NCBI GenBank assembly: GCA_963745235.1
Contig: CAVUXE010000008.1
Span: forward strand, 1-57,717
Reading direction: 5' to 3'
DNA length: 57,717 nucleotides
Origin: an uncultured Spirochaetota bacterium
Lineage (GTDB): Bacteria; Spirochaetota; Spirochaetia; SZUA-6; Fen-1364
The notes under the pieces were generated by a model. The model was given only the letters and a program-made list of their open reading frames with translations. It was not told the origin of the DNA and searched no databases. Below, piece by piece: positions 5,061 to 32,382 of this stretch; within the stretch, counting starts at the first letter, position 1; each line of letters starts with the position of its first letter. The position numbers and the translations under genes are program-made.

Positions 5061-5913
5061 CTACGGCAGTTTCACTGTCGCGGACATGTCCTTCCGAGCA
5101 GCCATTCCAAGCACGAGGTCCAGGAATGAAAGCATCTTTTCCTTGTACACCGAATCCCCAATACTCGTGAGCGCATTCCGCGCACGCCCTGCAACCTCGG
5201 TCGCGCGTTCGAGGGTAAACCCGTCCACTTCGTCGACCTCATCGTCCACGTAGTCGTCGACGAGTTGATAGGCTACCCCTACATTCATCCCGTATTCCGT
5301 CATCGCGCGGACCGAGTCAGGGTCGCCTCCCGCCACCATCGCTCCAGTCCGCGCCGATGCCGACATCAAGGATGCGGTCTTCAATCGTACCAACGTCAAG
5401 TAGGTGTCGAAATCGACCTTCTCCCCAGAATGCATCAAGTTGATGAGCTCCCCATGACACATCCCTTCGGTTGCAAGGGCTATCGGCTCGATCACCTCCT
5501 TTGGCAGGTAGTGAGCCATGAGGTAAAAGGCTTTCGAAAAAAGCGCGTCTCCGGCAAGCAAAGCGATGTGATTCGTGTAAACGGCGTTGAGCGTCGGGAG
5601 CTGGCGTCTGAGCGCGCTCCCGTCAAGAATATCGTCATGAACCAGGCTGGCGTTGTGGACGAGCTCTATCGCAGTGGCAAGTTGAATGAGAGTTTCGTGA
5701 GTCTCCTCGTCATCGTGATTGCTCACAGCGCCGGCGGAGAGAAGCGCCATTGCCGGACGAAGTAGCTTACCTCTTGCTCTGAAGATGTAGGCGACGATCT
5801 TGTTGACAACGCGATTCGTCGTTTGGATTTCTCTGCGAATATTGCGCTGAACGCGCGACAGGTCACGCAGAATCGGCTCGTAGACCCGTTCGATGCTGCT
5901 ATTCCCTAGGCAT
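5061..5913 (-). CDS. polyprenyl diphosphate synthase (1-nt indel just after start)
   Basis: GKLLRP, LVHDDILD...RR, LKTA, QLVDDYVD. The frame stays open upstream of the track ORF to about 5905; ATG at 5913 needs removal of one G from AGGG. Confidence 0.85.
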
Positions 5914-6264: not shown

Positions 6265-6374
6265 CCCGTCATTCGCGATCGGGGCGGTCACAGCGTTGAG
6301 GCTACAAGGAAAGCTGCAACATCAGCCGGCCGATTGGAACGCAGAACGCCGAAATATTCGGACTGACATAGCCA

Positions 6375-7724
6375 CTACCCGTGGCTGAGACTAGGCATTT
6401 CCGAGATGACGTAGTTGCCGTCTGAATCCTTCGACTCAGGCTCATTGAACATCAACATGACCTCTGCAGTCAGCTTGCAAAAACTGTTGAAGGTATAGGT
6501 AACCGATGGGGTAACTTCCAAGATCGGATCTGTGTTAGAGAAAATCTGGGCATACGTCCCAGTCTTCCAAGTACCTTGGAACCCCGAATCGGGGAGAACC
6601 GCCGCCAAGCGTACCGCCCATGTCCAGGTCGGGTCTTGGAGCGAAGCCGTCAGCTCGGCGCCGTAGATATTCAACGCGTACCAGGTTCCCTCTACCACGG
6701 GCACGCCGAAGACTGTACCGGTATCGCCGGCCTGAACGGTGTCGCCGAAGTGTCCCATTGCGACCTGCCCGCTAAGGGCAAAAGTCTTTCCGATCAGAGG
6801 GGCCCGCACCTGGAAGTCAAGGTCCAGCTGATAATACAAACCGCTCACAGCTTGTCCGCTCCCCGCGAGGCCCATGTATGGGTTGAAAACCGACGAAAGA
6901 AGAAGGTTCCCACTATAATCTTGGTTGTAGAGAAAGGTCCCTACTTCGCTTCCCATCTCGCTGAAGAGATCCCCATGGCCGGCGTTGCTGTCGGCAGCGA
7001 CGAAGCCGTTGAGGTGAATAGCGTATTGGAGATTATCCACTTTCGCAAACCCGGTTTGCCTCTGATGGAACGGGTCGTCCGAAATGCCATTCGAGTAGCC
7101 GACCCTCAGTAACATTGGCAGCGGCAGATGCAGCTGTTCGGGAAGAAATCGCTGAGGCAGGTTTGGGGCACCCTGAACGAGACCGAGGACGCCATCAAGA
7201 CCGCCAAAGTGACCAACAAGGGCAAGGCCCATTTCATAGCCTGAGTTGAAGAAGAGGTTGAAATTGGGAGACTTTTCCGCGAAAAGCATGTACGAATCAT
7301 CAGTCGCGCTTTCCAGGTTGGTTGGGTCTTTGAACTGCCCCACTTTAAGGTACATTGCATTTCCTATCAGGGGAATGTCCACGTAAGCGTCCGTCAGATC
7401 CAATACACCATTATTGGCGAAAAAACCCGAGTACGAGGCGTTTGCCTGGGCCGTACCTCCGTAGGTAGTCGATAGCCGCCAGTCGAAACCCTTATAGGCT
7501 CCGCTTATGTACAGTTGATCCGCAGTGTTCCATAAGTAAACCCTAGTTTGATTGCCGACGGTGTCATCGGACACATATTCCGTTTCGCCCATGGCTTGGA
7601 TGAGGCCTCCGACTGACACTTGAAGGTCGTCGGTATTCACTACTGGCACCGCGTGTGCTTGAGCTACGGACACGAGGCCCAAAAAGACCGTAAGCAGACT
7701 CGCCCATTTCATCATGCTTTTCAT
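6375..7724 (-). CDS. outer-membrane porin-like beta-barrel (OprO/P-like), possibly 3'-truncated
   Basis: Signal peptide (AQAHA), LTDAYVD...LKVGQFK motif, alternating beta-strand pattern; no typical terminal aromatic residue. Confidence 0.6.
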   Translation of the reverse strand: MKSMMKWASLLTVFLGLVSVAQAHAVPVVNTDDLQVSVGGLIQAMGETEYVSDDTVGNQTRVYLWNTADQLYISGAYKGFDWRLSTTYGGTAQANASYSGFFANNGVLDLTDAYVDIPLIGNAMYLKVGQFKDPTNLESATDDSYMLFAEKSPNFNLFFNSGYEMGLALVGHFGGLDGVLGLVQGAPNLPQRFLPEQLHLPLPMLLRVGYSNGISDDPFHQRQTGFAKVDNLQYAIHLNGFVAADSNAGHGDLFSEMGSEVGTFLYNQDYSGNLLLSSVFNPYMGLAGSGQAVSGLYYQLDLDFQVRAPLIGKTFALSGQVAMGHFGDTVQAGDTGTVFGVPVVEGTWYALNIYGAELTASLQDPTWTWAVRLAAVLPDSGFQGTWKTGTYAQIFSNTDPILEVTPSVTYTFNSFCKLTAEVMLMFNEPESKDSDGNYVISEMPSLSHG

Positions 7725-9012: not shown

Positions 9013-9686
9013 CTACTGGTGCTGCACCTTGATATTGAACATGCCGTCCTGGAGCGCGCCCCACAATCGCGCCCACAGGGCAAAGTACATCTCGGGACCG
9101 CGGGCCGAGGAGATATCTCCCAGGTCCAGGATGTCCGACCAGCCGAAGGATCTCAAGATCTCCCCTACCCTGGCCTTCGCGTCCTTATCGTTTCCCGCCA
9201 CGAAGATTGTATGATCACCCCCTTTGACCGCGCGTGGGTTTACCATGACATTCGCCGTGATGGTGTTGAGGCTCTTGACGACTTTCAAGTTGGGAAAAGC
9301 ATTCTGGATACTTTCAGCGACACAACGCGTCTGGCTCGCCAGCAGGGCGGGAGGTCTCCCCGTGCTGAAATCCAACTCATTTGCCGTGTCGATCAGGACC
9401 TTCGGACCCACGTTGCCGGCCCCCGCAAGGCGGAGAGCTTCTACCGATGCCTGCCGTTGGTGGCGTTAATAAGAAGCTCTCCGTGAGCGGCAGCTTCTTT
9501 GAACGTTCCGACTTTCGCCTTCTGCTTCACCATGGTCAGCCATTCGTTGAGCGTCCCGGCCATATTCTTTTTTTCGTCCAGCTTGCCCGGATCCCTGGTG
9601 CCGAGCACCACGTCATGCCCAAGCTCCACGAGCTTTTCTCCCAGGGTTTGCGCGACGACTCCCGATCCGATAATTCCGATTTTCAT
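9013..9686 (-). CDS. NADPH-dependent F420 reductase-like oxidoreductase (frameshift near 9445)
   Basis: MKIGIIGSGVVA...GHDVVLGTRDP joined to KVLIDTAN...VVKSLNT...AGND..AK...DLGDISSAR. Confidence 0.8.
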
Positions 9687-9929
9687 GACAGCCCTCCTGT
9701 TCTCCCGCAGGCAACGAACACGAGGGAATTTCGATCAAGGACTGCCGGAAGGCAAGCCCGGAGGACCTCCCCTTTCGGACAGGTGTGGTGCACAGATCGT
9801 TTCGGCGCTACAGGCCAATCCGAGTCACGTTGTTCGGCTCCTATGCGCGCGGAGACTACAACGCCGCGAGTGATCTCAACATTTTCATGGTTGTCCCTGA
9901 AGCAGCGGACCGTCCAGCTCTTCGCCATG

Positions 9930-10546
9930 ACCCGTGATAGAAGACAATCCGTTCGCAGATGTTGCCCACCCGATCCGCAGAGCGCTCGAGGTTGTGCGCT
10001 ACCCAGGTGAGTCGGTTGGCCTGGTCAGTGGTCTGTGGGTCGCTGATCATGATTGTGATGAGCTCGCGGTAGGTCTGCTCGTACAGCGAGTCGACCTCCA
10101 TATCTTCCGGCGGGATGCCGCGCGCCTCCTCGACATCCTGGCGCATGAAGGAGTCCAACGCTCGGTGCAGCATGTCGCATTGCCTTGTCGGCCATGCGGG
10201 GAATAGCCTCCAGAGGCTTGATCAGGGGCTTCTCGCCGAGGGCCAGAGTGACGTTGGCGATTCCCTTGGCGTAGTCGGCGATACGCTCCAACTCCGTGGC
10301 GATCTCGAAGATCGCAGCCAACGTGCGCAGGTCCCCGGCCATCGGTTGCTGGGTGGCGATGAGGGTGAGGGTGTCGTCCTCGATGGCGTAGCGCTTCTCG
10401 TTGATGAGGCGGTCATCGACTATGAGGCTGTGCGCCTTGGCCGTGTCCCTCTCCTTGAGCGCCCGCACGCTCTCGGCCATGGCCCTCAGGGCCAAGATCT
10501 CATCCTTCAGCCGCTGTAGCTCGTGTTCGAACTTTTCGCGTGGCAT
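9930..10546 (-). pseudogene. phoU: PhoU phosphate-uptake regulator, degenerate/frameshifted
   Basis: LIATQQPMAGDLR, ELERIADYAKGIA, NLERSADRVGNICERIVF; frameshift near 10180, short deletion in helix 1, ragged C-terminus. Confidence 0.75.
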
Positions 10547-10690
10547 CGTTCACCTTCTCGCTTGTACCTTGTGCCTGCTCGCATCCTAAAACAAAACTTA
10601 CTGTTTTTGCGCGCGTCGCGGTCTAGTTGGATTTTCTGTTCTAAATAATCGCCTCTTATCGAGAGTGCGTGAAACAAGGGGCAGCCATGG

Positions 10691-10897
10691 CTACAGGAGT
10701 TGACCGACCGCGCCCGGGGGAAGTAGAACGGCAATCACGATGGCTGCACCCAAGGCAACCGCTGCTACAACGCTTAACCACAGCGCAGCAAGCCTCGCTG
10801 TCTTCCGCGCCATCACTCGGCCGACAACTAACAGGGCTACAGCGACCAGGACAGGAATTGCTGCAATAAGCATCGAGGCGAAGGGCCGCAAACGCAA
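10691..10897 (-). CDS. small hydrophobic hypothetical protein (2 TM)
   Basis: Two hydrophobic stretches; start uncertain. Confidence 0.3.
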   Translation of the reverse strand: MRLRPFASMLIAAIPVLVAVALLVVGRVMARKTARLAALWLSVVAAVALGAAIVIAVLLPPGAVGQLL

Positions 10898-10980
10898 GGA
10901 ACAAGACGATGGGGTGGAAAGAAGCGGCCATAGGCCGAATACCGTGAAAACAGTGCTTCAAAGGGTATCGAGACCGTGGC

Positions 10981-11372
10981 CAGGTCTTGTTTTCGACCGA
11001 CGATCGCGATAGAGTTTCTAGCTGAACAGCTTTTCCTCTTGGAATTGTCGCCCCCGGTTTCAACTCCTTTCCGGGGGCGATTTCTTAGGTTTCAAAGAAG
11101 TACGGAGGCATGCCTGCTCCCCCATGAAGGTTCTTTCATGCTGACGATCTCCCGCGCTGGTACACATGATTGATCGAACGAAAGGGTAATAAGGGCCGAT
11201 CCCTCCCAGCGCTGACTTACCGCCATCGGACTCCGCGCCTGCGCATAAACGCTGCATGAAATATCAGTCTCGGGCAGAAGGTTAGGCAAGAGAAGCGCCA
11301 GGCTGTTTCACTCAGGAACTACCGCGGAGGATTCCCTGTCGCGCCCTCTCAGCGCGCACCATGGCCTGGCGC
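10981..11372. repeat. structured non-coding element, copy 1 (hairpin H + core C + module M on - strand)
   Basis: Shares blocks CGCCCCCGG..CCGGGGGCGATT, CATGCTGACGATCTCCCGCGCT, GACTTACCGCCAYCGGACTCCG and GCCATGGTGCGCG..CGCGAC..GAAAC with copies 2 and 3. Confidence 0.85.
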
Positions 11373-11405
11373 GGGAGAGTATGCACCCTGCGGGGAGTAC
11401 AGGGG

Positions 11406-11444
11406 AAAGAAAAGAAGGGGCCCCGGAGCGGGGATCCCGGGCCG
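11406..11444 (-). terminator. intrinsic terminator
   Basis: GGCCCCGG/CCGGGGCC stem (11419-11444) followed on the - strand by a U-rich run; near-identical to 12121-12156. Confidence 0.65.
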
Positions 11445-11492
11445 TGTCGTGTGAAGATTTTCGTCTACCTTTTCGGCAGCCGCGGTGCGTAC

Positions 11493-11669
11493 TTAAGGAG
11501 TTGTCGTCCGCTGGAATTCTCGCTCCGCCTTCCTCATCACAACCTTCTGGGATTTACACGCTTCGCAAGAATACTCGACCCACAGATCACCCAAACCTGT
11601 CTCGATCATCTCTGTGTTGCAGAAAGGACACAGAACCTCTGTCACCCCGTGCTCCGTTTTACATCCATG
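11493..11669 (-). CDS. small zinc-ribbon protein (CPFC...CEAC); likely indel near start
   Basis: Two CxxC pairs; GGAGGGG RBS before an ATG overlapping the previous stop. Confidence 0.45.
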   Translation of the reverse strand, partial: HGCKTEHGVTEVLCPFCNTEMIETGLGDLWVEYSCEACKSQKVVMRKAEREFQRTTTP

Positions 11670-11877
11670 CCACCCCTTCTTTCTTCTCGAGCTCTCTCCA
11701 GCGCTGTTCCATCTCCTCAAAGCCATGCTTGGGCATGAATCCGAAATCGTGCGAGCCACGGGGACCGCATCCATAGGGATACACCTTTTTCGGAATACCA
11801 AGGGGGAACGCCTCACAGCTCAGGCGTCCCTCGGTGTCTCCCAACCCTTTGCAGATCGTACAGAATGGTGACGCCAT
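11659..11877 (-). CDS. small Cys-rich phage-like protein (CxxC...CEAFPxGIP)
   Basis: MASPFCTICKG...SCEAFPLGIP; motif recalled from prophage hypothetical proteins. Confidence 0.5.
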   Translation of the reverse strand: MASPFCTICKGLGDTEGRLSCEAFPLGIPKKVYPYGCGPRGSHDFGFMPKHGFEEMEQRWRELEKKEGVAWM

Positions 11878-12120
11878 GTTTACGCGCGCTTCCCAGGCCA
11901 GAGCGAACGCAAAACCCAATAGATAGCGAACAAGGTGAAACCTACCAGCAGCACAACGAGCTTTCCCATAGAAACTCTTTTCAAAGGCCGGAGCGACTTG
12001 CCCCGCCAAACAAGTCGTTCGGGGTCTCAGAGAATTAGCCCAACATTGTGCATGGGGGACATTTTGAGCGGTAAGGCTTCCGAATATAGGGAGTGTATCA
12101 CAGTGAAGGCCCTGTCTGGG

Positions 12121-12156
12121 GAAAAGAGCGGCCCCGGACGCTGAGATCCCGGGGCC
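12121..12156 (-). terminator. intrinsic terminator (paralog of 11406-11444)
   Basis: Same 8-bp stem GGCCCCGG/CCGGGGCC, with CTCTTTTC downstream on the - strand. Confidence 0.6.
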
Positions 12157-12259
12157 CTGCGCCGCGGTGCGATCCGCAGAGGGCTCGCCGTGTCACTCGC
12201 CAGAGGAAAAAGCGCCGTTACCGACAAGTGGCTGTGGTTCGTAAAAGCCCGGGGCTATG

Positions 12260-12463
12260 TCAGTCTTTGAGAACACACTCAACCTGGCCGAGCAGCGAGA
12301 GCAGCTTCGTTGCGAACTCCTCAGAGCCAGGACTCTTTTTCATTAGGTCCGCCAGGGCCTGCAGCTTGAGATAGACGTCTTTGGGGATTTCGTAGTACGC
12401 CGCGAAACCAATATTTGCTGCATCGAAACAAACCTGGTCGGTAGTCATGTTGCAAACTCCCAC
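12260..12463 (-). CDS. small hypothetical protein
   Basis: 67-aa ORF, GGAG upstream of MTTDQ, terminator downstream. Confidence 0.45.
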   Translation of the reverse strand: MGVCNMTTDQVCFDAANIGFAAYYEIPKDVYLKLQALADLMKKSPGSEEFATKLLSLLGQVECVLKD

Positions 12464-12546
12464 TGTCAGTCCTAAAGGTTACACACAGGAAGCCGGCTTC
12501 TCAGGAGGTCTGGAAAAGAAAAAGTGGGATTCGCCCCTGGACTATC

Positions 12547-12856
12547 GCGCCAAGCCATGGTGCGCGCTGACGTTGGCGCGACGGGCATCTTTTCTTCGCT
12601 TAAGAAACGCTTGGCGCTCTCCTTTAACGAAGCCAGGTCCAACTTTGTTTTCGGCCGATGATCGCGGTAAACTTTAACTGAAGCCTTCCTCATGGGGATC
12701 GTCGCCCCCGGGTCACCTCCTTCCCGGGGGCGATTTTTTGGGTTTCAAAGAGGCACGGAGGCATGGCTGCTGCTTTCTCCATGCTGACGATCTCCCGCGC
12801 TTGGCAACATGACGAGAAACCCCAGCGCTGACTTACCGCCACCGGACTCCGTGTCT
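12547..12856. repeat. structured non-coding element, copy 2 (M on + strand, H, core C)
   Basis: M 12547-12617, H 12702-12733, core 12751-12856; same conserved blocks as copies 1 and 3. Confidence 0.85.
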
Positions 12857-13015
12857 CGAAGGAAAACGTGCCCATCAGAAGATCGCTCTTCGGCGGGAAA
12901 GCCGGCAAGACAGTCGAATAAACAGAAAGGCCCGGACGACTTGTCTCACCACAAGCCGACCGGACCACCACAGAGGTGTGACGAAAGATTGCCGAATCTC
13001 GTAGCAGAAGGCGGG

Positions 13016-13222
13016 TTAATGCTTCTGTTCGTCCTCGGGTTTCTCAATGAGATCCTCGACTTCCTCGACGATCACTTCATCGAGCAGACTGCAAAAGCCT
13101 GCTGTTCCATCCCTCACATTGCGCAACACGGCGGAGATCTCCGTCTCGACGTTGGATTCCATTAGATCAACCACTGATGCCAGCATGTTACGAACGATTC
13201 TTAACAGGTCCTGTTCCTTCAT
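13016..13222 (-). CDS. small acidic hypothetical protein
   Basis: MKEQDLLRIVRNMLAS... helical, protein-like composition. Confidence 0.4.
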   Translation of the reverse strand: MKEQDLLRIVRNMLASVVDLMESNVETEISAVLRNVRDGTAGFCSLLDEVIVEEVEDLIEKPEDEQKH

Positions 13223-13516
13223 CGCAACCCCGCTGCATGAAAAGATCGGTCTCGAGCAGAAGTCCTGGCAAGTGAAGCGCCAGACTGTATTCGTCTTGCT
13301 AAGATCGAAGTTTCGAGGAATCCTCAATCGCAAGAGTGAAATCAAGACCGGAGTTGGGTTCAACCCTCCGCCTCAAGACCCATAAAGTGTTGCGACCAAA
13401 GGACGAGTCAAAACAGGACATTCGAAGGATGCAAAACCGAAATCCATGGTCATCAATGGTTCCTGAATCAACAACGGGAGGATTGCAATGGGCACATATG
13501 CATCTATGGTACTCAA

Positions 13517-14203
13517 ATGGAGGTCGCTATGAAGGTAAATGGTAGCGCAATGTCCCAAACGGCTCTTTACCGGATTTCGGCCGTGGCGCTCCTCGTTGGG
13601 GCGGCGCTAGTCACGGCGGGCAACCTGCTGGGTCCGCAGGGCGATGCTAGAGAGGCGGTCGCCAGCGGGACGTACTATCCGGCCGCGGTCGTCGTGCTGT
13701 TGGGCGGCTTGTTGGTCATGGCGAGCTTGCCGGCCATCTACCTGCGCCAGCGGGCGGAGAGCGGCGTCCTCGGCTTTGCGGGTATGGTGGCTGTATTCGT
13801 GGCGGCGATGACACTGCTCGTCGGCTTCCCCCTGATCCAGGTTCTGATTTACCCCTGGATCGCAACCATGAGCGTCTCGAACAAGGTCCTCAACGATGGG
13901 CCGGCTTCTTTCAACGTCTTCTTCGCGGTCGCCAGTGGCATCGTCGATCTGGGTGGAGTCCTCTTCGGTGTCGCCACCATACGGGCCAGGATCTTCTCCC
14001 GCCAACTCGGTATCGGCTTCATCGCACTCACGGCGGCCAGTTTCGTACTCGGCTTCCTGAGTATTCCAGGGGGTGGGGGTATCGCTATGTCTTGGTGGTG
14101 GGCAACGACCGGGACCTTTGGTGTGGTCGCCTATATGGTGGCCCTAGCCTGGTTTGCGATCGAACTGCTACAGACCGTCGGCGTGCGTCGACAAACCCCA
14201 TGA
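13517..14203 (+). CDS. multi-pass membrane protein
   Basis: About 6 hydrophobic segments; GGAGG RBS before ATG 13529. Confidence 0.7.
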   Translation: MEVAMKVNGSAMSQTALYRISAVALLVGAALVTAGNLLGPQGDAREAVASGTYYPAAVVVLLGGLLVMASLPAIYLRQRAESGVLGFAGMVAVFVAAMTLLVGFPLIQVLIYPWIATMSVSNKVLNDGPASFNVFFAVASGIVDLGGVLFGVATIRARIFSRQLGIGFIALTAASFVLGFLSIPGGGGIAMSWWWATTGTFGVVAYMVALAWFAIELLQTVGVRRQTP

Positions 14204-14581
14204 AGCCTTCATTTCAGTTGCCGCGAGCTTCTCGTTGCAGCGTGCTTTTTCGGCCTTATCGAAGGTACAGGGATACAATGTAGCCGGGGGGCCAAAGCCA
14301 TCTTTGCTCTTTTCAAGGGGTCATTACCCACCTATTTCGGCGCCATTCAAATGACAATCGCTAGACTGGAGAAACCAAGGGCGTTCCACTGTGCTCTTGT
14401 CCACAACACCGCGGTCAAAAAGGCGATGGAGCGTCACGGGCAGGTGCCCCCAGTAAGGGGCACCGTACAGACGCTTCGAGGTTCTCCTGAACAGGTCGCC
14501 TCGGCGCTGCTCAGCGCCGGTTGATTTTCTGGGCGCGCCTTCATAAGATGATCCATCCAGGAACCAATCGGAGGCCCTTCC

Positions 14582-15205
14582 ATGAGTGACCATTCCTTTG
14601 AGGTCATGGCGTCTGCCCTGCTCATCATCGACATACAGAACGCGTTCATCCATTCCAACGGCTCTCTCCAGAGAATGGGGCTGGACACCTCTCGGACGCG
14701 AAAGGTCACCGAGCCCATCAAGAAACTGCGTGGCATGTTCCACGAGGCGGGCCTCCCCGTCATCTACCTCCAGCACACGCACGACGCCAACGGCGCGGAC
14801 ATGGGATTGATCGCTGAGGTCTTTCCTCCTATTCGGGCTCTCGGCCACTGCTTTAGTGGCTCTTGGGACGCTGCGGTGATCGACGACCTCACCCCCGCTT
14901 CAGACGATCATGTGGTCGAGAAGCACCGATTCAGCGGGTTCTACCAGACGGATCTCGAGGATCTCCTCCGAAGGCTCCGCATAAAGAGCCTTGTTGTTTC
15001 AGGAATCGCCACCAACATCTGCGTAGAGTCCACGATCCGCGACGCCTTCTTCCGAGACTATCCAGTCGTAGTGCCAAGAGAGACAACCGCCTCATTCACT
15101 GAAGAACAGGAGGCGGGCGCGCTCGGGAACTTCGCGTTCGCCTTCGCAAAGGTGATTCCGCTGGACGACGTCATCCGTTCGATCTCCGCCACGCGGCAAC
15201 CCTGA
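14582..15205 (+). CDS. cysteine hydrolase / isochorismatase family (RutB-like)
   Basis: ALLIIDIQNAF, KHRFSGFYQTDL, GIATNICVESTIRDAF (D-K-C triad). Confidence 0.9.
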   Translation: MSDHSFEVMASALLIIDIQNAFIHSNGSLQRMGLDTSRTRKVTEPIKKLRGMFHEAGLPVIYLQHTHDANGADMGLIAEVFPPIRALGHCFSGSWDAAVIDDLTPASDDHVVEKHRFSGFYQTDLEDLLRRLRIKSLVVSGIATNICVESTIRDAFFRDYPVVVPRETTASFTEEQEAGALGNFAFAFAKVIPLDDVIRSISATRQP

Positions 15206-15314
15206 GGTCCCTCTCGGGCTGCCCACGAGACTCACTTGGCAGGTCCCAAGCCCCACACAGATAACCTCCTTGACGATGTTCTTCTTTGAGAGGTAGACCG
15301 AAGGCTACTTATGG

Positions 15315-15878
15315 CTACTTTCTTGAGCTAGGACCTCTCTCGCCAGGAACGAAGTATACATAGTCACGAAACTCTTCGTCGGGGTTGCCGTCACCGTAGG
15401 GGTGCTTCTCGTTTGCGTTCGCGTGGCAAGTAATGCAAAAGTTTCCCATGAAGACTGCCTCTTTGCCGTTTGGAAGATCACGGGTGATCCAGAGCCAGCC
15501 GCCCTGGGAATGAGGATCCTCGGGAGCCTTGACCATGATAGTGAGCTGGATGGGCTGCTCGCCTGGGGCGGGTTTCGGCGTCTGGTAAACTTCCTTTACG
15601 ATGACGGTACCAACCGGGAAGTCCCACACGCGTTTGCCGTTGTCAAGGGTTGGTTTCACAGTGAAGCCGACATCGTTCATTCTTGGGATACGGAATCGGT
15701 TTTGATGGCCTGGTATTGGATAGTCAAGAACCACATCTGTCGTCCGTTTCCATGAGTGGTAGTCAGGTGTCGCGTACACATGAGGCTTCTCCGCCACGCA
15801 GCTTAAAAGCATTCCACACACGGCGAGCAGCGAAACACCAATAGTCCACAGCGCCGGGAGATTGTTCCGCACAGTCAT
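15315..15878 (-). CDS. cytochrome P460-family lipoprotein
   Basis: Lipobox LLSC, Y..W, FPVGTVIVKE, IMVK, GGWLW, C-terminal CITCH. Confidence 0.8.
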   Translation of the reverse strand: MTVRNNLPALWTIGVSLLAVCGMLLSCVAEKPHVYATPDYHSWKRTTDVVLDYPIPGHQNRFRIPRMNDVGFTVKPTLDNGKRVWDFPVGTVIVKEVYQTPKPAPGEQPIQLTIMVKAPEDPHSQGGWLWITRDLPNGKEAVFMGNFCITCHANANEKHPYGDGNPDEEFRDYVYFVPGERGPSSRK

Positions 15879-17329
15879 GGCGACCTCCCCTGAATAAAGC
15901 CAGTAAGAAGCCAGACTCGTTGAGGTTGATCTTTTCCCTTGAGTTTCGCGGAAAACGGCCCCTTGAACTGAAATCCGGCTTCCGTGGCTGACTTTGTTGC
16001 CTCGCTCACGACGATCTGCATTCCCTTCGCGATGCCGCAGAGTCGACTCGCGACATTCACCGAATCACCGATTACCGTGAAGTCAGCCCGGCGTAGCGAT
16101 CCAATCATGCCGTGGATGACCGAGCCAGTGGCAATCCCAGCTCCGACAGCAAGGTGGTCGAACTCTTCTGAGCTTTCGGCGCAGAGGCGAACGATGCGGA
16201 GTGCTGCTGTGCAGGCGCGGTGTGGGGCGTCGTCTCCTGAGTAGATGGCCACGATTTCGTCGCCCACAAACTTGTCGATGTCCCCGCCGCTTTTCTGGAT
16301 TATCTCTGATTGTTTCTCCAAAAGACGGTTCAGGACTTCCACAACCTGCTCCGGCTTGCGGCGCTCGGTGTAGGAGGTGAAGCCGCGGACGTCTGTAAAA
16401 AGCAAGGTGCGAAGAACACGCTGTGGTTCTTGGCTCGCTTTCAAGGAGTCCAAAGTACTTGCCGAGACGTACTTGGTGAGCTCGAAACGCTCTCGCAGAC
16501 CCCCGACCATAGTGTTGACCGTCCGTGCAAGCGTCCCAATCTCATCGTTGCTTCTGATTTCGACTCGGCCCTGAAAGTTCCCCGAGGTTACCTCTGTGCA
16601 CACCTTACCAATGAATTGCACTGGCTTCAGCACGACGCGTCGAAGAAACGTGCCGATCGCCCATACGAGGATCGTAACCACCACGAGAAAGCCTATTCCC
16701 GAGCCGCCTATTGTGAATGCCTGGGCTTTGACGGCCCCTGTCACGTCGCTCCGTATGTCAATGACTCCCCGCACAGTATGGTCCGCTCCATGGCACACAG
16801 TACATTTGGGGAGGTTTATCAGAGGTCTGTACGCTCGGAAATATGCCGTTCCTCCAGCGAGGGGATGACCGAGGTCGTCTCGAAAGAACAAGTCTTGCGG
16901 CGGTATGCCAGCTGCCTCGGCGAACCGGGGTGTCGGCATGGCCTTGCCTGGAGGCGACGGACGATCCTTGATCTGAAAGCGCTGCTTCCCAAGGTTTCTG
17001 TTCACCGTCTCGATGGTGGAATTGTCCGAAAAGGCTCTTGTTCCATCTCTTCGATACAGAGTGATTGATGTTCTGGCGTCCGTGAGATTGACCTTGGTAA
17101 AGTAGCCAACGGCTTCAGGAGCGTTGCCCGATAGCATCAGGGTCTCTATCGCGATGAAGTGATCGTCACCCTGTCTTTGCAGGCTCTGTATCGAAAGCCG
17201 GTTGCCAAAGGCAATCAGTGACGCGGCAAAGACGACAATGACAGCTCCAATCCCGACGGTCAACGCAACGACGAGGATGGTATCTACCTTGAAAGTTAAA
17301 GAGAAAAACCGTGCCTTTCTGTCTTTCAT
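15875..17329 (-). CDS. class III adenylate/guanylate cyclase with periplasmic CxxCH sensor and HAMP
   Basis: TM-periplasmic domain (PKCTVCH)-TM-HAMP (DEIGTLA)-cyclase (FTDVRGFT, DKFVGD, DFTVIGDSVNVASRL). Confidence 0.9.
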   Translation of the reverse strand: MKDRKARFFSLTFKVDTILVVALTVGIGAVIVVFAASLIAFGNRLSIQSLQRQGDDHFIAIETLMLSGNAPEAVGYFTKVNLTDARTSITLYRRDGTRAFSDNSTIETVNRNLGKQRFQIKDRPSPPGKAMPTPRFAEAAGIPPQDLFFRDDLGHPLAGGTAYFRAYRPLINLPKCTVCHGADHTVRGVIDIRSDVTGAVKAQAFTIGGSGIGFLVVVTILVWAIGTFLRRVVLKPVQFIGKVCTEVTSGNFQGRVEIRSNDEIGTLARTVNTMVGGLRERFELTKYVSASTLDSLKASQEPQRVLRTLLFTDVRGFTSYTERRKPEQVVEVLNRLLEKQSEIIQKSGGDIDKFVGDEIVAIYSGDDAPHRACTAALRIVRLCAESSEEFDHLAVGAGIATGSVIHGMIGSLRRADFTVIGDSVNVASRLCGIAKGMQIVVSEATKSATEAGFQFKGPFSAKLKGKDQPQRVWLLTGFIQGRSP

Positions 17330-17514
17330 CGATCCCGTCAGTATAGGCCGGGGCTATCGCGCCTTCAAGCTTCGCGTGCAAAGCTTCAGACCAGTTTCGC
17401 ACCAACGCTCTGAGGCACCCGGGCAACATCGGAGCTACCAGTAGACAGTCCGCAACGTTATGGGAAGTCAGGAAGGCTTTGCCACCTGCAAAAGACCATC
17501 ATAAAATAAGTGCT

Positions 17515-18555
17515 TCATTCCACGTCGCCCCCAGCGAAGTGTTGGAACAGATTCTCCTTGAGCTCTTCCAGTGCCGGCAGGCGTTTCAATACAGATAGCT
17601 CACATCCAAGGATCGCCGCCACCTTCCTCAGAGCCGCAGCAAGAGCCTGCCGCGGGACGTGGATGGCCAGCGGGATCCGAGAATGCTTTCTTACGAGTTC
17701 GAGCAGCTGCTTGTTCAACGCCCAAGCTTTTAGGTCAGGATCATCCGCCTGATCAAGAAGTTCAATACCCAAGCCGAGCCCGCTATGTTGATCGACCCAG
17801 CACATGGCCATGGGGTAGTAAGGTCGTTCACCTGGTGACTCTCGTGTAGGAGTAGGTACGTAAAAGAGGTCTGCTTCCCAGATCCCTTCCTGCCTCGCCG
17901 TCGAGCCTTTCAGTCTTGCGGCCTCAGTTTCGTCTACTACGGATTCTTGAAGTGGCCCAACAGGGGAGGGAGCTGGTTTTATCCACTGATCGATCCAACC
18001 TCCATCCGCTGCCATTACGCGAACGAAAAGCTCCTTCGCCCGAGGCGGCGCGAGCAATTCCGGCTCCGATCGTAACCGCGAACACGCCACAAAGGCTTGC
18101 TGCAGAACTTCAGTAAAGAAAACGACCTCCGATCCATCAAGACGCCAGGGGTACCATCCGCGTCGGTGACTCCTAAATTGCGGCCAACTGTTGCGCCCCC
18201 GAAAGGTAAGACCGAGCGATTTTATGAGGGCGAAGTCGCTGGCTTCCAGTCCCTGGCGGTTTTCAAACGATACCATGAGGCACGGGAACCCATAACGGAT
18301 TTCATCGTCGTCTGCCCTCAGTTCGCCAGCCTGGATTCTGCAGTGGATGCTAAGCCCGGCGGCGCCAAGGTAGGCAGCCAGCCCGAAAACCTCCCCTCTC
18401 AGGCCCAGGACACTGCACCAAGCGATCTGTCCCTGGTTCGCGTCCACCACTCCGAAAACCATGTTGTCGTCCATCCATACCCAAGGACCAAGGTCGCGGA
18501 AAGCCTCGGCAGCAGCAAAAAGGTCTCTCCATTGCTCGTCCAGTGCTTCTGGCAT
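17515..18555 (-). CDS. conserved hypothetical protein
   Basis: 346-aa ORF with protein-like composition (PWVWMDD, WPQFRS...YPW); no function recognised. Confidence 0.7.
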   Translation of the reverse strand: MPEALDEQWRDLFAAAEAFRDLGPWVWMDDNMVFGVVDANQGQIAWCSVLGLRGEVFGLAAYLGAAGLSIHCRIQAGELRADDDEIRYGFPCLMVSFENRQGLEASDFALIKSLGLTFRGRNSWPQFRSHRRGWYPWRLDGSEVVFFTEVLQQAFVACSRLRSEPELLAPPRAKELFVRVMAADGGWIDQWIKPAPSPVGPLQESVVDETEAARLKGSTARQEGIWEADLFYVPTPTRESPGERPYYPMAMCWVDQHSGLGLGIELLDQADDPDLKAWALNKQLLELVRKHSRIPLAIHVPRQALAAALRKVAAILGCELSVLKRLPALEELKENLFQHFAGGDVE

Positions 18556-18647
18556 GAGGGGAGAATAACGGAGACTATCTTACCCTGTGAACCACCTCGC
18601 GAGCCGACCCGAAGCTAACCCTTAAAATGCCTTCATCTGGCTTTGAT

Positions 18648-19115
18648 CTACTTTCCTAATCTTGGATCCAACTTATACTTGAGAGGGGTGCCTATGACGA
18701 TTTTCGAAAAATCGGGGTGTTCTGGATTTAAGAGGTAGTTGCACTGACCGGGGACCACCCCTGAAGGCACGCGTAAGACAGCGCTTCGATGCGATGTGAT
18801 CCAGTCCCCTCCAATTTGCTGTAGTTTAGCCCATCCTGGGTCTACAAGCCTTTGCCACCCTCGTGGAAGAGTAAGAGGATCCAGTTTTTCAACGAAGCTT
18901 TCATCAAAAGAGCACGGGATAAGAACATAAAGCGTAAGCAGCCGCTCATCCGTGTGAACAAGAAGCTCCAAGGTTGCCAACGACTGAGAATCGGAGGTGT
19001 AAACAACCTTCTGCCCGCTCGTATTCCACCGCCCCGGCGCTCGCGCTGCTCCTGCGCCATCAAAAGCGGTCCGAACATATTTCGGCTTGCAAATGCGCCA
19101 AGCCTCTACTGTCAT
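18648..19115 (-). CDS. RES-domain toxin
   Basis: WRI...GAGA...GRWN..G..VVYTS.S..LA.LE.LVH, LRVPS, NYLLNP.HPDF. Confidence 0.9.
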   Translation of the reverse strand: MTVEAWRICKPKYVRTAFDGAGAARAPGRWNTSGQKVVYTSDSQSLATLELLVHTDERLLTLYVLIPCSFDESFVEKLDPLTLPRGWQRLVDPGWAKLQQIGGDWITSHRSAVLRVPSGVVPGQCNYLLNPEHPDFSKIVIGTPLKYKLDPRLGK

Positions 19116-19609
19116 GAAAAAACGCCATTCTCAATTCGTCCAATCAAGTTTTCAACAAGAGCTGTCCCTGCCTCGGTTGCTATCATCTCTTCAGGCGATA
19201 GTCCTTCAAATGCCGAGTTCCTGCGCTTCAACCATTCCAAGGCGGCTTCCTGATCGCCTTCGTAAAGCTCGCACGCGTGCCAGAAGACGCGGAGAAGCCT
19301 GACAGCCCGGTCCGATTCAATAGAGTCCAGTCTTCCGCTCTTTTTTCGTCTCTCAAGCGTGCGAAAGCTCATCTGAAGAGCTGTCGCGATCTGTGTGCGA
19401 TCTAGCTCCAAGGTATCTTGAAGCAATTTTACCGTTGTATAGGGAAGGCCCTTTTGTATCATCTTGAGGATTGTCTTAGGACTATTTACCTTGACCCCGA
19501 GCACCGACCAATAACCGGCCGGATCGCCACAGCCTACCCGGGGAGCGGTTCGCCTTGTATTCCTGTACTGAGCTCCCGCGGCTATCCCCTTCGACCTAGT
19601 AGTTGCCAT
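19112..19609 (-). CDS. Xre/MbcA/ParS-family antitoxin
   Basis: GLPY...SFRTLERRKK.GRL...ESDR, A.EWL...N.AF.G.SP, LIGRIENGVFS; overlaps the RES start. Confidence 0.9.
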   Translation of the reverse strand: MATTRSKGIAAGAQYRNTRRTAPRVGCGDPAGYWSVLGVKVNSPKTILKMIQKGLPYTTVKLLQDTLELDRTQIATALQMSFRTLERRKKSGRLDSIESDRAVRLLRVFWHACELYEGDQEAALEWLKRRNSAFEGLSPEEMIATEAGTALVENLIGRIENGVFS

Positions 19610-19646
19610 ATGGCGTAATATATGCGTCATTTGGCGAACCTGTCAA
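19604..19646 (-). promoter_or_regulatory. sigma70 promoter with palindromic operators for the Xre-RES operon
   Basis: TTGACA (19646-19641)-18 bp-TATATT (19622-19617); CGCCAAATGACG and CGCCATATGGCA quasi-palindromes. Confidence 0.6.
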
Positions 19647-19818
19647 TACATTCGTTCTCGGAGTCGACCGAAGGCGCAGTTATTGGAAGTAGGTAGCAGA
19701 CCTGCCGGAAGAACCTCTTGCAGTGCGACATCCGGGTCGCCGCAAAACATCCTTACGTGAGGGGAAGAAAACCAAGGCCTCGGTGGGCAGTCTGTTCAAG
19801 AAAGAGTAAATTCGCTCT

Positions 19819-20222
19819 GCGCCGGGCCATGGTGCGCGTCGAGATGACGCGACAGGGCTTCCACTTTGCCCGTATGAAACAGCTTGGCGCCCTTTCAATC
19901 GTCCTTGCATTCTCCCGAATAATCCTGGTAAGCTGCTTTTTTCCCTTGTGCGTGCGCCCCCGGAAAATCCTGTTGGAGGATGCCTCCTGGAATCCCGGGG
20001 GCGATTCTTTAGGCTTTCCCAAAGAGGCACGGAGACATGGCTACTGTAATTGGAAAAGTCCCCCTGCGCCATGCTGACGATCTCCCGCGCTGGTACATGA
20101 TCGTGAAGAAAAATGAAGGCGATCCTTCCCAGGCGCCGACTTACCGCCACCGGACTCCGTGCCCAAAGAAAGATACAGAAAGCGCCAGGCCGTTTCACTC
20201 AGGAACTACCCGTGGCCTGGCG
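19819..20222. repeat. structured non-coding element, copy 3 (M+, H, core C, internally deleted M-)
   Basis: M 19819-19890, H 19955-20003, core 20026-20163, short inverted M 20182-20222. Confidence 0.85.
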
Positions 20223-29701: not shown

Positions 29702-29943
29702 TCAGTGGTCATCTTCATCATCCGCCGCTGAGACGGAAGCGCCGGCAGAGCGGCTCGCTCGAGCACGGACCACTTTGCCCGTTCCCAGATTTCAACAATC
29801 TAAAACATCTTTTGCGAATGCAAAAAGCTCAGGCAATACGGATAGCTCTGGAATAGACCGGGTGCGAGGCCATTTGGTTCCGCTTGAGATCCTTTGTCAG
29901 CGGTCCGCCAAGAGCGGCTTTCTTGAGAGTAGGGAGGGGAGAA

Positions 29944-30672
29944 GTGAAAGTGATCACATTTGGCAGTCTGAAAGGTGGCGTCGGAAAAACTACCTGTGCC
30001 GCCTTTCTCGCACAGGCCCTCGCATCGAAAGGTGCGCGGGTCCTCGCGGCAGATATCGATGCCAATAACAACCTAACTGACTACTTCCTGCGTGACTCGG
30101 CACCCCAAGAGCTTGAGGCACGCAACGTTCGCCATGTACTTGCCGCCGGAATGAAGCCAATTGAGGCTGTACATCGGTCGGCTCTTGGCGTCGACGTGCT
30201 ACCAGCGACGCCGGCACTGCACTCTGTCGGCGTAGAACTAGCAAGCGATCCCGGGGCGCTCCTTCGATTCCCTGCAAACCTGCACCGGCTCGATTATGAC
30301 TTCATTATTATGGACAGCCCACCTGCCCTTGTTCTCGAGTTGCGTGCTGCACTTTATGCCGCGGATCTCGTGCTTGTGCCGATTGCATTCACTCGATGGA
30401 CTATTGCCGGTTTCCAGCTCTTGCGTCATGAGCTGCAGAAAGTTGTCGAGACAACAGGTGCAGAGCCAGTTCTGCGCGTAATCCCATCATGCGTAACGGA
30501 GAAAGAAGCCCAGCAGCTCCTCGGAATGGATGCCTGGTGCTCAACGCGAGCCGCGATACTGCGAAGCGGTGCCGTCAAGGCGGCGAGCACATCGGGACGT
30601 CCCCTGAAAACGGACTCGCGCTCATGGGCTGAGTTTCAAACTTTGGCAGATGAAATCGAGAGTATGAAATGA
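29944..30672 (+). CDS. parA: ParA/Soj-family ATPase
   Basis: KGGVGKTT deviant Walker A, DIDANNN, DFIIMDSPP. Confidence 0.9.
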   Translation: MKVITFGSLKGGVGKTTCAAFLAQALASKGARVLAADIDANNNLTDYFLRDSAPQELEARNVRHVLAAGMKPIEAVHRSALGVDVLPATPALHSVGVELASDPGALLRFPANLHRLDYDFIIMDSPPALVLELRAALYAADLVLVPIAFTRWTIAGFQLLRHELQKVVETTGAEPVLRVIPSCVTEKEAQQLLGMDAWCSTRAAILRSGAVKAASTSGRPLKTDSRSWAEFQTLADEIESMK

Positions 30673-31512
30673 GCAAAACACAACTCGAGGCAATCCGTGA
30701 CATGGCCGGCCGGGACTCGCTTCCGGAGGCGTCAAAGATCGAAAAGAGGAAACTCGAAGGGTTGGAACTGTCAGAGATTCAATACAAACCCCTGTCTTGG
30801 TTCAAACACAATCCGGAGAACGAAATCTTTACCAACCAGAAAAAAGCTGCATATTGGCAAGCCCTCGAACGCGATATCAGGGAGGCAGGAACGGTCCTCT
30901 CTCCGCTCATCGCGATGATGGACGGTCTGCTTATCGAAGGGGAAAGCCGCCTCACTATTGCAGGCAAACTTGAAGGAGAGGGGATCGCCGGCTTCGACCG
31001 CCTGCCCGTCCGCCAGGTCCTTTCAACCCTGACTCTCGAGGAACAAAGGAAACGGCTTTATCTTGGTAACCTTTCGCGATTTGAAATCGACGAGGATACC
31101 CGGGCCGCTCTCTATGCGCAAATCTGGCCCGATCTGACACATGAGGGAAAGCCCGGAAGAGTCTCGACCGGAAATACTGCAACCGTTGCAGTAAAACGCA
31201 CGGAGGCCGTCCGTGAACTCGCCAAGTGGAGCGGGGTTGAAAGAGCGACAGGCTTGGAATGAGGCCGGAGTTATAGCTGATGCTGCCAGAATCGCGAGAG
31301 AAGAAGGCGCGGAAGCGCCGAGGCCAGAGCATATTCGGAAGGCCAGAGAGAAACGGAACGCAGAGCGCAGAGTGAAGGCGAAGTCATCTGGTAATGTGAC
31401 CTTGCGTCTATCCTACACGGACGCAAAGCTGACTTTACGAATCTTGAAAAGGGCGGGGGCACGGCCAACCATTATCGAAGCGCTTGTTAGCGCAATTAAG
31501 ACCAGGCAGTAA
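30669..31512 (+). CDS. ParB-like partition protein (frameshift near 31245)
   Basis: HNPEN..F...LERDIRE.G...PL....GLLIEGESRL...NLSR; continues in ORF 31213-31512. Confidence 0.65.
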
Positions 31513-31699
31513 ACTTGTAGCCACGGTTTTACAGTGAACTGGGTGGAGGTGGATGTTGACCTATTTCTTCGTTGTCTCAGTAAATTTTTTGCTTGCAACA
31601 AATTAGAGCACTGTGGTATTCTCGGCAAAGACTGGGAGGTCAATAAGAGAAATCAATTAACTACTTAACACCGGGTCGTCGTTGAACGGCCATAAAATG

Positions 31700-31800
31700 C
31701 AAAACCCCCGAGACTCTCGGGGGTCATGCTTACAGCTTTATTGGTAGCTATTTTCAGACCTGGTAAATCCGAGAATAGCCGAATCCCCTGAAGCTGTCAA
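31700..31800 (-). ncRNA. candidate countertranscript (ctRNA) 1 with promoter and terminator
   Basis: TTGACA (31800-31795)-17 bp-TATTCT (31777-31772); about 65-nt transcript ending in an ACCCCCGAG/CTCGGGGGT hairpin + UUUU. Confidence 0.65.
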
Positions 31801-31823
31801 GCAAAAAAATTAGACGGTGAGGT

Positions 31824-32249
31824 TTGTCTTTGAACATGTGCATCGGGAGGGGAAGCTTGGACTGTTGCTTTTGTAGTCAAATATGCGCAGGGATAGGCGG
31901 CGACAGCGCTGTGTTCCTCCAAAACCTGATCTACTGGCGCCTCCATAACAAGGCAAACGGGAGAAGCCAGCGAAACTCTCGCACCTTAGATCTCTCTCGA
32001 AAGCTTTTCTCGTTCAGGTCGGTGAAGCAAATCAGAGGCATTATCACTTCCATGATTAAGCGGGGGTCATCATCAAAGGTGGCTTCAACGATCGGGCGGC
32101 TCACAGGCTTTCTGTTTCATAGATTTGGCCTTCCGGGAATTCTGAAAACGAAGGAGGCGTCACCGCAAGACGAAACCTATCAGGAGCGGTCTCCATTGCA
32201 TGAACACCATAAGGAGGTCAAAGCCGATATCAAACCCATAACAGAATAG
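31824..32249 (+). pseudogene. degenerate replication-initiator-like gene
   Basis: IGGDSAVFLQNLIYWRLHNKANG...LFSFRSVKQIR resembles phage/plasmid replisome-organiser N-termini; the remainder is decayed. Confidence 0.45.
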
Positions 32250-32279
32250 AGAAGGCTGCTCGTTGAGCAGCCTTAGCAA

Positions 32280-32382
32280 TGCAAAACCCCCGCTGATTTG
32301 CGGGGGCTGTGCTTGCGCCCTAAGGGGCAGCTGTTGTCGGATGTGGTAATCGGACAATAGCACAAACCCTCAAAAGCGTCAA
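32280..32382 (-). ncRNA. candidate countertranscript (ctRNA) 2 with promoter and terminator
   Basis: TTGACG (32382-32377)-17 bp-TATTGT (32359-32354); CCCCCGC/GCGGGGG hairpin + UUUU; homologous to copy 1. Confidence 0.65.

Follow-up and report, generated by a model that had tools for sequence, protein, structure and literature searches.

What kind of element is Core C, an intergenic repeat that occurs three times in DNA of an uncultured Spirochaetota bacterium, and on which strand should it be read? The stretch that was analyzed, positions 1 to 57,717 of contig CAVUXE010000008.1 (GenBank assembly GCA_963745235.1), will be called the window. In each copy two near-invariant segments lie among stems with variable loops, and the original prediction took these segments for long single-stranded linkers of a three-way junction, leaving the functional strand undetermined. 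The answer that we favor, tentatively and at somewhat less than an even chance, is that Core C encodes a family of small structured RNAs, with minus as the sense strand; in this predicted RNA the two linkers would pair with each other over part of their length.

The three copies were recovered where they had been predicted, at 11098-11239, 12751-12855 and 20025-20163, all on the plus strand. The window holds linker 1 (TGACGATCTCCC) three times and no more, at 11142, 12785 and 20075, and linker 2 (GACTTACCGCCAYCGGA) likewise, at 11214, 12830 and 20138. With up to one mismatch, 0.41 occurrences of linker 1 are expected by chance in the window and one of 100 shuffles gets to three; for linker 2, with mismatches allowed, the corresponding figures are 0.01 and none of 100. 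The copies were compared by BLAST with the whole genome (5.85 Mb in 104 contigs, 85.7% complete), and the aligned genome copies were used to build a covariance model, R1. This model detects nine copies, including only the three already mentioned in the window (contig C8), with scores of 115.4, 112.6 and 117.9 bits for copies 1, 2 and 3; their proposed RNA sense is minus, and copy 2 has the shortest loops of the three. Contig C103 carries two further copies, C11, C30 and C31 one each, and C12 a decayed one. Lengths of Core C range over 102-147 nt, and identity among the copies of this genome is 68-82% in the parts that align. Once other genomes and metagenome contigs were added and identical sequences dropped, 29 distinct copies were available, in which sequence conservation, pairing potential and genomic context can be observed directly.

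Outside this genome the family is scarce. R1 detected the element in G003, G015 and G020, three of the 20 further genomes of the genus that were searched, and in none of 40 genomes of the same family or order that belong to other genera, and a second model, R2, matched none of 150 further genomes sampled across the phylum; in both of these wider searches filters were strict and many genomes incomplete. Joint search for the two linker strings, as proposed with the original prediction, proved productive: the exact pattern matched four stretches in two assemblies of a 185,579-species genome collection, both entitled 'uncultured Spirochaetota bacterium', and 17 metagenome contigs were matched as well. 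No match was obtained in IMG/VR viral contigs, nor when copy 1 with its flanks (window 10979-11330) was compared by BLAST with PLSDB plasmids and GenBank phages. At gathering thresholds, Rfam reported only a tRNA in the whole window and nothing on Core C; with E values up to 10, no match on Core C was found among the 4227 families of Rfam 15 on either strand of 10500-13600. Four linker strings were sought in the literature, supplementary files lying outside the search, and only unrelated primer matches were retrieved. Core C is a new, narrowly distributed, genus-restricted repeat family that probably acts at the RNA level.

The nested arrangement of stems was upheld on the larger set. P1 (GGCACGGAG/CTCCGTGCC), P2 (GCATGG/CCATGC) and P3 (GCGCTGG/CCAGCGC) are all present in the window copies, and the same junction, with variable loops and near-invariant linkers, recurs in many more. 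In an alignment of the 29 copies that was fitted to the covariance model, 91.8% of the 643 pair cells hold standard pairs; with slid partners, pairing of the plus-strand structure falls to 27-44%. Changes on both sides were detected in six pairs (nine cells), a level reached by 0-2 of 500 shuffles. Examples of compensation are P3 of C30 (GCGTTGG/CCAACGC), G-C to A-U replacements in P1 of G020a and L040 and in P2 of L040, and P1 of G020a is in addition longer by AACAAC/GTTGTT. Because pairing exceeds the slid controls, and changes on both sides exceed the shuffled ones, the nested P1/P2/P3 arrangement can be taken as real. An inner GATCG/CGATC stem, also predicted, does exist in copies 1 and 3 and is not a general feature of the family. 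Structured loop interiors can be rejected: interiors of the P2 and P3 loops (26 copies each, both strands) do not exceed dinucleotide shuffles in stability, mean z lying between -0.35 and +0.34.

The view of the linkers as single-stranded, in contrast, is probably wrong, as seven bases of each can pair mutually on the minus strand. The resulting helix, P4 (UGGCGGU/AUCGUCA), includes two G-U pairs which become A-C mismatches when read on the plus strand. Read on the minus strand, linker 2 (11214-11230, also 12830-12846 and 20138-20154) supplies UGGCGGU as the 5' strand of P4, and its AAGUC, with the next base, belongs to an internal loop; linker 1 (11142-11153, also 12785-12796 and 20075-20086) supplies GGGAG as the other side of that loop and AUCGUCA as the 3' strand of P4, which adjoins P2 without a spacer. 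The loop AAGUCA/GGGAG is invariant and sits between P4 and P3. Both linkers are present in 26 of the 29 copies, and 179 of their 182 P4 cells are paired on the minus strand (133 Watson-Crick, 46 G-U, three mismatched). On the plus strand, only 135 of the same 182 cells pair, with the 46 wobble cells turned into A-C mismatches, and the longest helix that the linkers can form with each other is 3 bp. P4 therefore explains the invariance of part of the linkers without tertiary contacts. It also serves as a caution on reading repeats from one strand only, since 'invariant unpaired linkers' become a helix with G-U pairs on the other. As to the strand, P4, a predicted helix and not a proven one, points to minus.

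Folding of the aligned copies gave a similar picture. For RNAalifold, 19 minus-strand copies of the 29 were aligned with MAFFT. The set left out L048, L034 and L050, each very close to a retained copy; L036:3133-3268, which shares its P2 loop with C8c, and the short copy L036:3396-3497; and the truncated, decayed or insertion-split copies L037:1465, L047, C12, L033:1434 and L051. P1, P2, P3 and P4 were all predicted unprompted, with a consensus energy of -30.6 kcal/mol, to be compared with -20.2 kcal/mol for a plus-strand fold of nine copies, a different copy set. In the complete minus-strand structure 96.9% of 551 cells are paired, versus 37-44% when partners are slid. When copies are folded singly, the fold of lowest energy includes P4 in 14 cases out of 26 (mean pair probability 0.50), and the minus-strand minimum-energy fold of copy 1 holds P1, P4, P3 and P2. 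The minus strand gives the more stable fold in 27 of the 29 cores, by 8.2 kcal/mol on average, and in 23 of 26 when P3 is taken alone.

From these data we infer transcription, RNA ends and any regulatory role as follows. The minus-strand RNA would start at a promoter-like module, described below as module D, or arise by read-through from an upstream gene on the same strand. It would fold as a compact three-way junction closed by P1 (GGCACGGAG/CUCCGUGCC), with a long arm made of P4, the conserved internal loop, P3 and a freely evolving tip, and a second arm made of P2, whose tip likewise evolves freely. P1 and a short U-rich tract after it would form the end, as in small RNAs of the 3' untranslated region (3'-UTR) type. 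The long arm with its internal loop is probably contacted by a protein or another RNA, because that arm persists in the most diverged copies; L051 and G020b, the two that have diverged furthest, retain the linkers and P3 and have lost P1 and P2. To our knowledge, few regulatory RNAs have been characterized in Spirochaetota. If the proposal is true, Core C would add to this phylum, from one of its uncultured lineages, a structured RNA family that is new and has four helices and one invariant internal loop.

The flanks of Core C are also relevant to the choice of strand. Core C is one module of a mosaic repeat in which other modules appear in variable combinations, and module D stands on the right (in plus orientation) of most copies. 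Of the 29 copies, 17 match the promoter-like pattern TTGCCN-17/18 nt-NAnnnT in module D on the minus strand; the match ends 16-25 nt before P1 in 14 copies, 10 nt before it in two with a short D, and 30 nt before it in a truncated one. The most conserved block is CTTGCC, with per-position frequencies of 0.8-1.0. Beside copy 1, module D (11240-11292, minus strand) reads TTGCCT-18 nt-GATATT and ends 20 nt before P1; beside copy 2 (12856-12910, minus strand) it reads TTGCCG-18 nt-GATCTT and ends 23 nt before P1. A further module D without Core C (13231-13288, minus strand) is found directly upstream of the start codon of S2, a small gene at 13222 to 13016. At the opposite end, the minus strand past P1 is CUUU-like, with a mean of 3.4 T in 8 nt versus 1.6 on the plus side; this count took in 24 copies, including some without module B, the left-hand module described below, and five split or decayed copies were dropped.

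Neighboring genes, called crudely by a codon-usage score trained on the long reading frames of the genome, show a bias in orientation. At 25 loci a gene could be called to the right (in core-plus orientation), and in 19 of these cases it is a minus-strand gene, so that Core C is usually downstream of a co-directional gene; on the left, the figure is eight of 17. Several of these loci are orthologous, so that the counts are not independent. Copies without module D are located 47-286 nt past the stop codon of a minus-strand gene, which is hsp20-like (G020a, L040), encodes a GYD-domain protein (L049), or an MCP (window). Altogether, G-U pairing in P4, fold stability, the U-tract, module D and gene orientation lean toward an RNA read from the minus strand.

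Other modules occur in the same region. Modules E and X occupy 11293-11373, E at 11293-11323 (also 20180-20210) and X at 11330-11373 (inverted at 12546-12589 and 19819-19857). The junction between E and D reads CTGGCGCTTC(T/A)CTTGCC, which has the -24/-12 spacing of sigma-54 promoters (TGGCNC-N5-TTGC), and is found on the minus strand at 11285-11301 and 13267-13283 of the window and beside the C11 copy. Sigma-54 was nevertheless rejected as a general promoter, as a well-spaced TGGCGC-N5-TTGC exists in only two of the 29 cores and in the upstream region of S2. A single-stranded-DNA promoter of the kind found in plasmid leading regions was rejected too: no long inverted partner was found for module D, and the stems lack promoter hexamers.

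A number of observations weigh against a minus-strand RNA. No both-sided changes were seen in P4, and shuffled linkers give seven contiguous pairs in 1164 of 20000 trials (5.8%). Six G-to-A changes in P4 fit equally well a 3-bp plus-strand hairpin, CCG/CGG, in which C-G becomes U-G. The minus-strand folds of window copies 1-3 are not unusual when compared with shuffles (z of +0.90, -0.93 and -2.28), and on each strand the fold is no better than the shuffles in two of the three cases. Lower folding energies on the minus strand may simply follow from its richness in G. The wobble pattern, already described as mixed in the original prediction, is indeed so: P1-P3 together with the small linker-2 hairpin yield 27 A-C versus 19 G-T cells on the plus strand, and the counts remain mixed in P1-P3 alone. 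Module D is weak relative to the canonical promoters of the genome (TTGACA-18 nt-TATAAA and TTGACA-18 nt-TATATT, upstream of tRNA-Val and of xre) and was not reported by a consensus promoter scan. Its second hexamer (GATCTT, GATATT, CATAAT, GACCTT, GAGCTT or CATCTT) keeps A2 and T6 constant, two positions that the search pattern itself required as NAnnnT. The U-tract after P1 is short. Lastly, the distribution of Core C is narrow and patchy and its loops are reshuffled among copies, features that, with the existence of decayed copies, fit a selfish or neutral repeat equally well.

The latter points lead to an explanation at the DNA level, which requires no RNA product. Core C might be the most conserved module of a mosaic repeat that recombines in the manner of BIME or BOX and is homogenized by gene conversion, or a single-stranded-DNA signal (a priming site or a single-strand origin) carried by mobilizable elements. 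We regard this explanation as rather unlikely, if worth serious thought. The variable combinations of flanking modules agree with it, and so does the reassortment of loop types: L042 and L037 have a P2 loop in common and unlike P3 loops, the same is true of C8c and L036a, and the P2 loop of copy 3 is identical to that of metagenome copy L036:3133-3268, the P3 loops of the two being different. The PhoU-linked copies C8a (window) and L043 have flanks that are 88% identical and unrelated loops, and exchange between copies is therefore indicated. Further points in favor are the decayed or truncated copies, C12 and G003b among them, and the presence of Core C in just three of 20 other genomes of the genus; the uniform orientation of copies that belong to the same cluster, observed without exception in C8 (three copies), C103, G003 and L036 (two each); and, on the plus strand, the trinucleotide CTG after each of the hairpins P2 and P3. 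The presence of both wobble types in P1-P3, and the use of the element as double-stranded target DNA by an RNA-guided insertion sequence (IS), considered below, also fit.

Mobile-element genes near some copies are likewise in line with a DNA-level role. On C103 there are genes for HTH_36, a MobA/MobL relaxase and a tyrosine recombinase, the recombinase being represented in the genome by at least six close copies; L042 carries HTH_36 and integrases; and the window encodes ParA, HTH_36, an RHH protein and an integrase between 29.9 and 36.2 kb. However, Core C is absent from most occurrences of the relaxase/recombinase element (C17, C82, C26, C74), and a tyrosine recombinase is found within 1.2-3.1 kb of Core C at only three loci. 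Nor do Y1 or IS110 genes track the element: Y1_Tnp genes occur in 12 of 21 genomes of the genus with no relationship to Core C, while G003 and G020, both incomplete, carry Core C without a Y1 match, and G003 (77% completeness) has neither a Y1 nor an IS110 gene. A partner transposase was rejected on these grounds. One difficulty for a repeat without RNA product is the near-invariant blocks amid loops that cannot be aligned, which need either selection or very targeted conversion. In addition, there are no target-site duplications and no near-identical copies in the genome, and both the bias in neighbor orientation and a helix that holds only as G-U on one strand are unexpected for a strand-neutral repeat. 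No clean empty site was found in relatives: in the two cases tried synteny stops at the flanking gene, and comparison by the MCP flank retrieved only paralogues.

The mobilizable elements themselves form a family, detected on C103, C17, C82, C26, C74, C87, C38 and C81 and at 29884-36211 of the window. Their parts are HTH_36, the MobA/MobL relaxase and a tyrosine recombinase of 279 aa, the latter in at least six copies of 79-100% identity, two of which are frameshifted.

A different possibility is that Core C is transcribed from the minus strand without being regulatory, as a complex terminator or 3'-end stabilizer for the mRNA of the upstream gene; a hairpin on the plus strand would terminate transcription from the other side, and the two would insulate neighboring genes. 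The hairpin belongs to a second unit: in more than half of the 29 copies, module B followed by a GC-rich hairpin with a T-run stands on the left of Core C (plus orientation). Within module B (10979-11046, also 12632-12700, plus strand), a promoter-like TTGTTT-17 nt-TAnnnT is present, together with the CU-rich beginning of a putative transcript of about 60 nt. In the 11 copies caught by the pattern, the -10-like hexamer is TAAACT, TAAAAT, TAGAAT, TAAGCT, TAGAGT or CAAAAT, the center varying and T1, A2 and T6 being kept. The hairpin (11047-11086, also 12701-12739 and 19954-20010, plus strand) resembles an intrinsic terminator, and its CACCUCCUU-like loop resembles the 3' end of 16S rRNA; at copy 3 (19954-20010) the hairpin stands alone, without module B. 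The unit thus looks like a putative small-RNA gene of the plus strand, with a CU-rich product of about 60 nt and its end 5-15 nt short of Core C; in this genome it is found only beside Core C. Rfam scores for it are below threshold (ar14, 16.6 bits against 58.8; CcsR1, 13.6 bits against 65.3), and wobble pairs in the seven hairpins captured by the pattern are uninformative on strand.

A role as terminator is supported by the tail-to-tail position of this hairpin and T-run relative to Core C, by the location of D-less copies shortly past minus-strand stop codons, and by P1 itself, a GC-rich stem of 9 bp followed by CUUU. We nevertheless consider it unlikely. The closing stem would span 90-130 nt, which is unusual for an intrinsic terminator; the tract after P1 is short, and weaker than the T-runs of the adjacent plus-strand hairpins; about 17 of the 29 copies are closely preceded by a promoter-like module of their own; and such a role does not account for an invariant internal loop and P4.

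Quite improbable, in our opinion, is the model put forward in the original prediction, a three-way-junction RNA read from the plus strand in which some 30 conserved, unpaired linker nucleotides serve for tertiary contacts or target pairing. P1-P3 do pair equally well on either strand, and the 3-bp hairpin of linker 2 still pairs through U-G on the plus strand (six one-sided changes, three unpaired cells). Richness in C and U is shared by linker 1, the 3' side of P3 and the anti-Shine-Dalgarno-type loops in the neighboring plus-strand unit. On that strand, however, Core C would begin 5-15 nt past a hairpin and T-run that resemble a strong terminator, with no promoter in between, and in copies without module B the sequence upstream is unrelated. 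The low stability of 27 of the 29 cores on the plus strand, the inability of the linkers to pair beyond 3 bp and the opposite direction of most neighboring genes speak against it as well. Very improbable, finally, is that the conserved blocks are double-stranded operators of a DNA-binding protein and the stems incidental: the linkers are better conserved than the stems, P3 with its flank holds an 8-bp palindrome (CAGCGCTG) and GCTGAC is present twice in the element, but the conserved blocks are separated by 30-60 nt, a spacing that varies by 30 nt or more, both-sided stem changes exceed the shuffle controls, and copies adjoin unrelated genes.

Other functions were considered for the conserved blocks. 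Target recognition by the linkers, suggested in the original prediction, was not sustained, as the additional genomic matches of linker 1 lie only in coding sequence that spells LREIVS or LTISR. Two exact 15-mer matches beyond the cores (C10 and C45) are of this kind, plausible coincidences of codon usage, and they were rejected as targets; for linker 2, the whole genome contains no match outside the cores with up to two mismatches. A coding role was rejected because frames that overlap the core differ from copy to copy, and because similarity among copies in all frames is typical of non-coding DNA. The conserved minus-strand AUG is not a credible start: the peptides would have 6-69 aa in three frames, and the AUG is absent from two of 28 copies. 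A Walker-A-like translation of block 3 is broken by the substitutions observed.

In the sole case of target recognition that was found, Core C itself is the target, linker 2 being the insertion site of an IS. On L046, a 1331-bp element of IS1111 type (~6310-7640, minus strand) splits a Core C copy between GCGCTGA and CTTACCGCC; the same sequence is present on L037 and L038, and a single insertion event into Core C was seen. Its gene has the domains DEDD_Tnp_IS110 and Transposase_20, its terminal inverted repeats are imperfect, and a non-coding region of 197 nt lies downstream of the transposase gene. Two 8-mers in that region, CGCTGACT and GTAAGTCA, match the top and the bottom strand of the target, respectively, with a small hairpin between them; both occurred together in two of 2000 shuffles. 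PMC11187229 describes IS1111-type elements with a seekRNA, having a non-coding region past the transposase gene, terminal inverted repeats and target-matching stretches. The layout and the guide-like 8-mers found here fit the expectation for such a seekRNA or bridge RNA, in this case a putative one. According to bioRxiv 10.64898/2026.03.19.712850, all insertions of an IS110 element map to copies of one conserved intergenic sequence, which encodes a GC-rich stem-loop beside the pairing site, and PMC12288879 has ISPpu9 inserting into REP sequences. The insertion in Core C provides a natural example of an RNA-guided transposon that landed in a structured multi-copy repeat.

An attractive speculation, which we regard as distinctly unlikely when taken as a whole, would bring these pieces together. 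Core C, read from the minus strand, would be a structured RNA class not described before and linked to mobile elements; its invariant internal loop, between P4 and P3, would bind a specific protein or carry out catalysis; it would form a functional partnership, perhaps of sense RNA and sponge, with the CU-rich small RNA that converges on it; and its multiple copies would offer a safe harbor to the IS1111-type transposon.

Additional features of the window can be summarized briefly. Four small genes that match no Pfam family are located on the minus strand in the intervals between Core C copies: S1 (12260-12463, 67 aa), with a paralogue beside the C30 copy; S2 (13016-13222, 68 aa with an acidic tail), with paralogues on C103 and C30; and two cysteine-rich, zinc-ribbon-like frames (11493-11816 and 11659-12009), one of which has a weak Lar-like match (E 0.02). 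A RES-domain toxin and an Xre-type antitoxin are encoded at 18648-19630 on the minus strand, just downstream of copy 3 in the minus direction, with a canonical promoter, TTGACA-18 nt-TATATT, at 19646-19617. Genes at 9441-10546 and 5061-5750 look broken: a PhoU-domain gene is in two frames (10025-10546 and 9856-10173), an F420-type oxidoreductase frame has just 81 aa, and a polyprenyl synthetase frame lacks its N-terminal part. At 37347-38425, direct repeats of 65-94 nt with 97-98% identity, ~805-850 bp apart, indicate a recent tandem duplication of ~850 bp, whose second copy is overlapped by an AHSA1-family gene (38193-38669). Two 48-nt direct repeats of 75% identity (31766-31813 and 32348-32395), with a reading frame of 141 aa between them (31824-32249), lie within 660 bp upstream of the HTH_36 gene (32421-33320) and may be iteron-like or operator repeats. 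Outside the window, a second ClpP on C30 is 91-95% identical across many genomes of the genus, versus 77-82% for the other ClpP copy, which suggests horizontal spread.

How does Core C compare with known systems? Several classes can be set aside. The hammerhead ribozyme consensus has CUGANGA between stems I and II, GAAA between II and III, and a UH cleavage site; in Core C, plus-strand linker 1 does start CUGACGA, but UCUCCC precedes the next stem and the second junction is CUGACUUACC instead of GAAA, and this identity was rejected. A miniature inverted-repeat transposable element was rejected as well: the 9-bp P1 can be taken as a terminal inverted repeat, but the flanks of the 29 copies show no consistent target-site duplication, only copy 3 having CAAAG on both sides, and the copies are 68-82% identical. 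Integron attC sites have RYYYAAC ... GTTRRRY core sites, fold as a single imperfect hairpin and form an array beside intI; Core C has no R''/R' core sites at its ends, its fold is branched, and a tyrosine recombinase is close at only three loci. G4-type priming signals and single-strand origins are strand-specific hairpins with an adjacent start for primase or RNA polymerase, active on single-stranded DNA; the points of contact are the plus-strand CTG after P2 and P3 and the location of some copies on contigs of mobilizable elements.

Other comparisons are closer. REP/BIME sequences are short imperfect palindromes of ~20-40 nt, present in tens to hundreds of copies and associated with a RAYT (Y1) transposase. 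Membership of Core C was rejected on the grounds of nine copies in 5.85 Mb, lengths of 102-147 nt and unrelated Y1 genes. As targets of IS110-family elements (IS621, ISPpu9, ISPpu10), REP/BIME are nevertheless similar to Core C in being multi-copy, intergenic, stem-forming and mostly downstream of genes; Core C, too, takes part in mosaics and is the specific insertion site of an RNA-guided element with a DEDD transposase. It differs in having three or four helices in its 102-147 nt, two to nine copies per genome, no link to Y1/RAYT genes, and conserved blocks split by hypervariable inserts. Pneumococcal BOX and neisserial Correia elements are short modules in variable combinations with predicted secondary structure, as Core C is, and the Core C repeat carries promoter-like and terminator-like signals like theirs; unlike Correia, it lacks terminal inverted repeats combined with target duplications, it is present in far fewer copies, and its sequence is not similar to theirs. 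With regard to the IS1111-family targets of seekRNA systems (PMC11187229), the likeness concerns what exploits Core C and not the function of Core C.

The comparison nearest to the minus-strand RNA is that with multi-copy and 3'-UTR-derived small RNAs. Like these, Core C is associated with a promoter-like element or an upstream gene, the body of the putative RNA would end in a closing stem and a U-tract, and paralogues are clustered, with a conserved core and variable tips. The differences are a proposed terminator that at the same time closes a multi-branch structure, and the lack of any matching Rfam family. In kind, then, Core C is ordinary: a lineage-specific structured repeat or small-RNA family.

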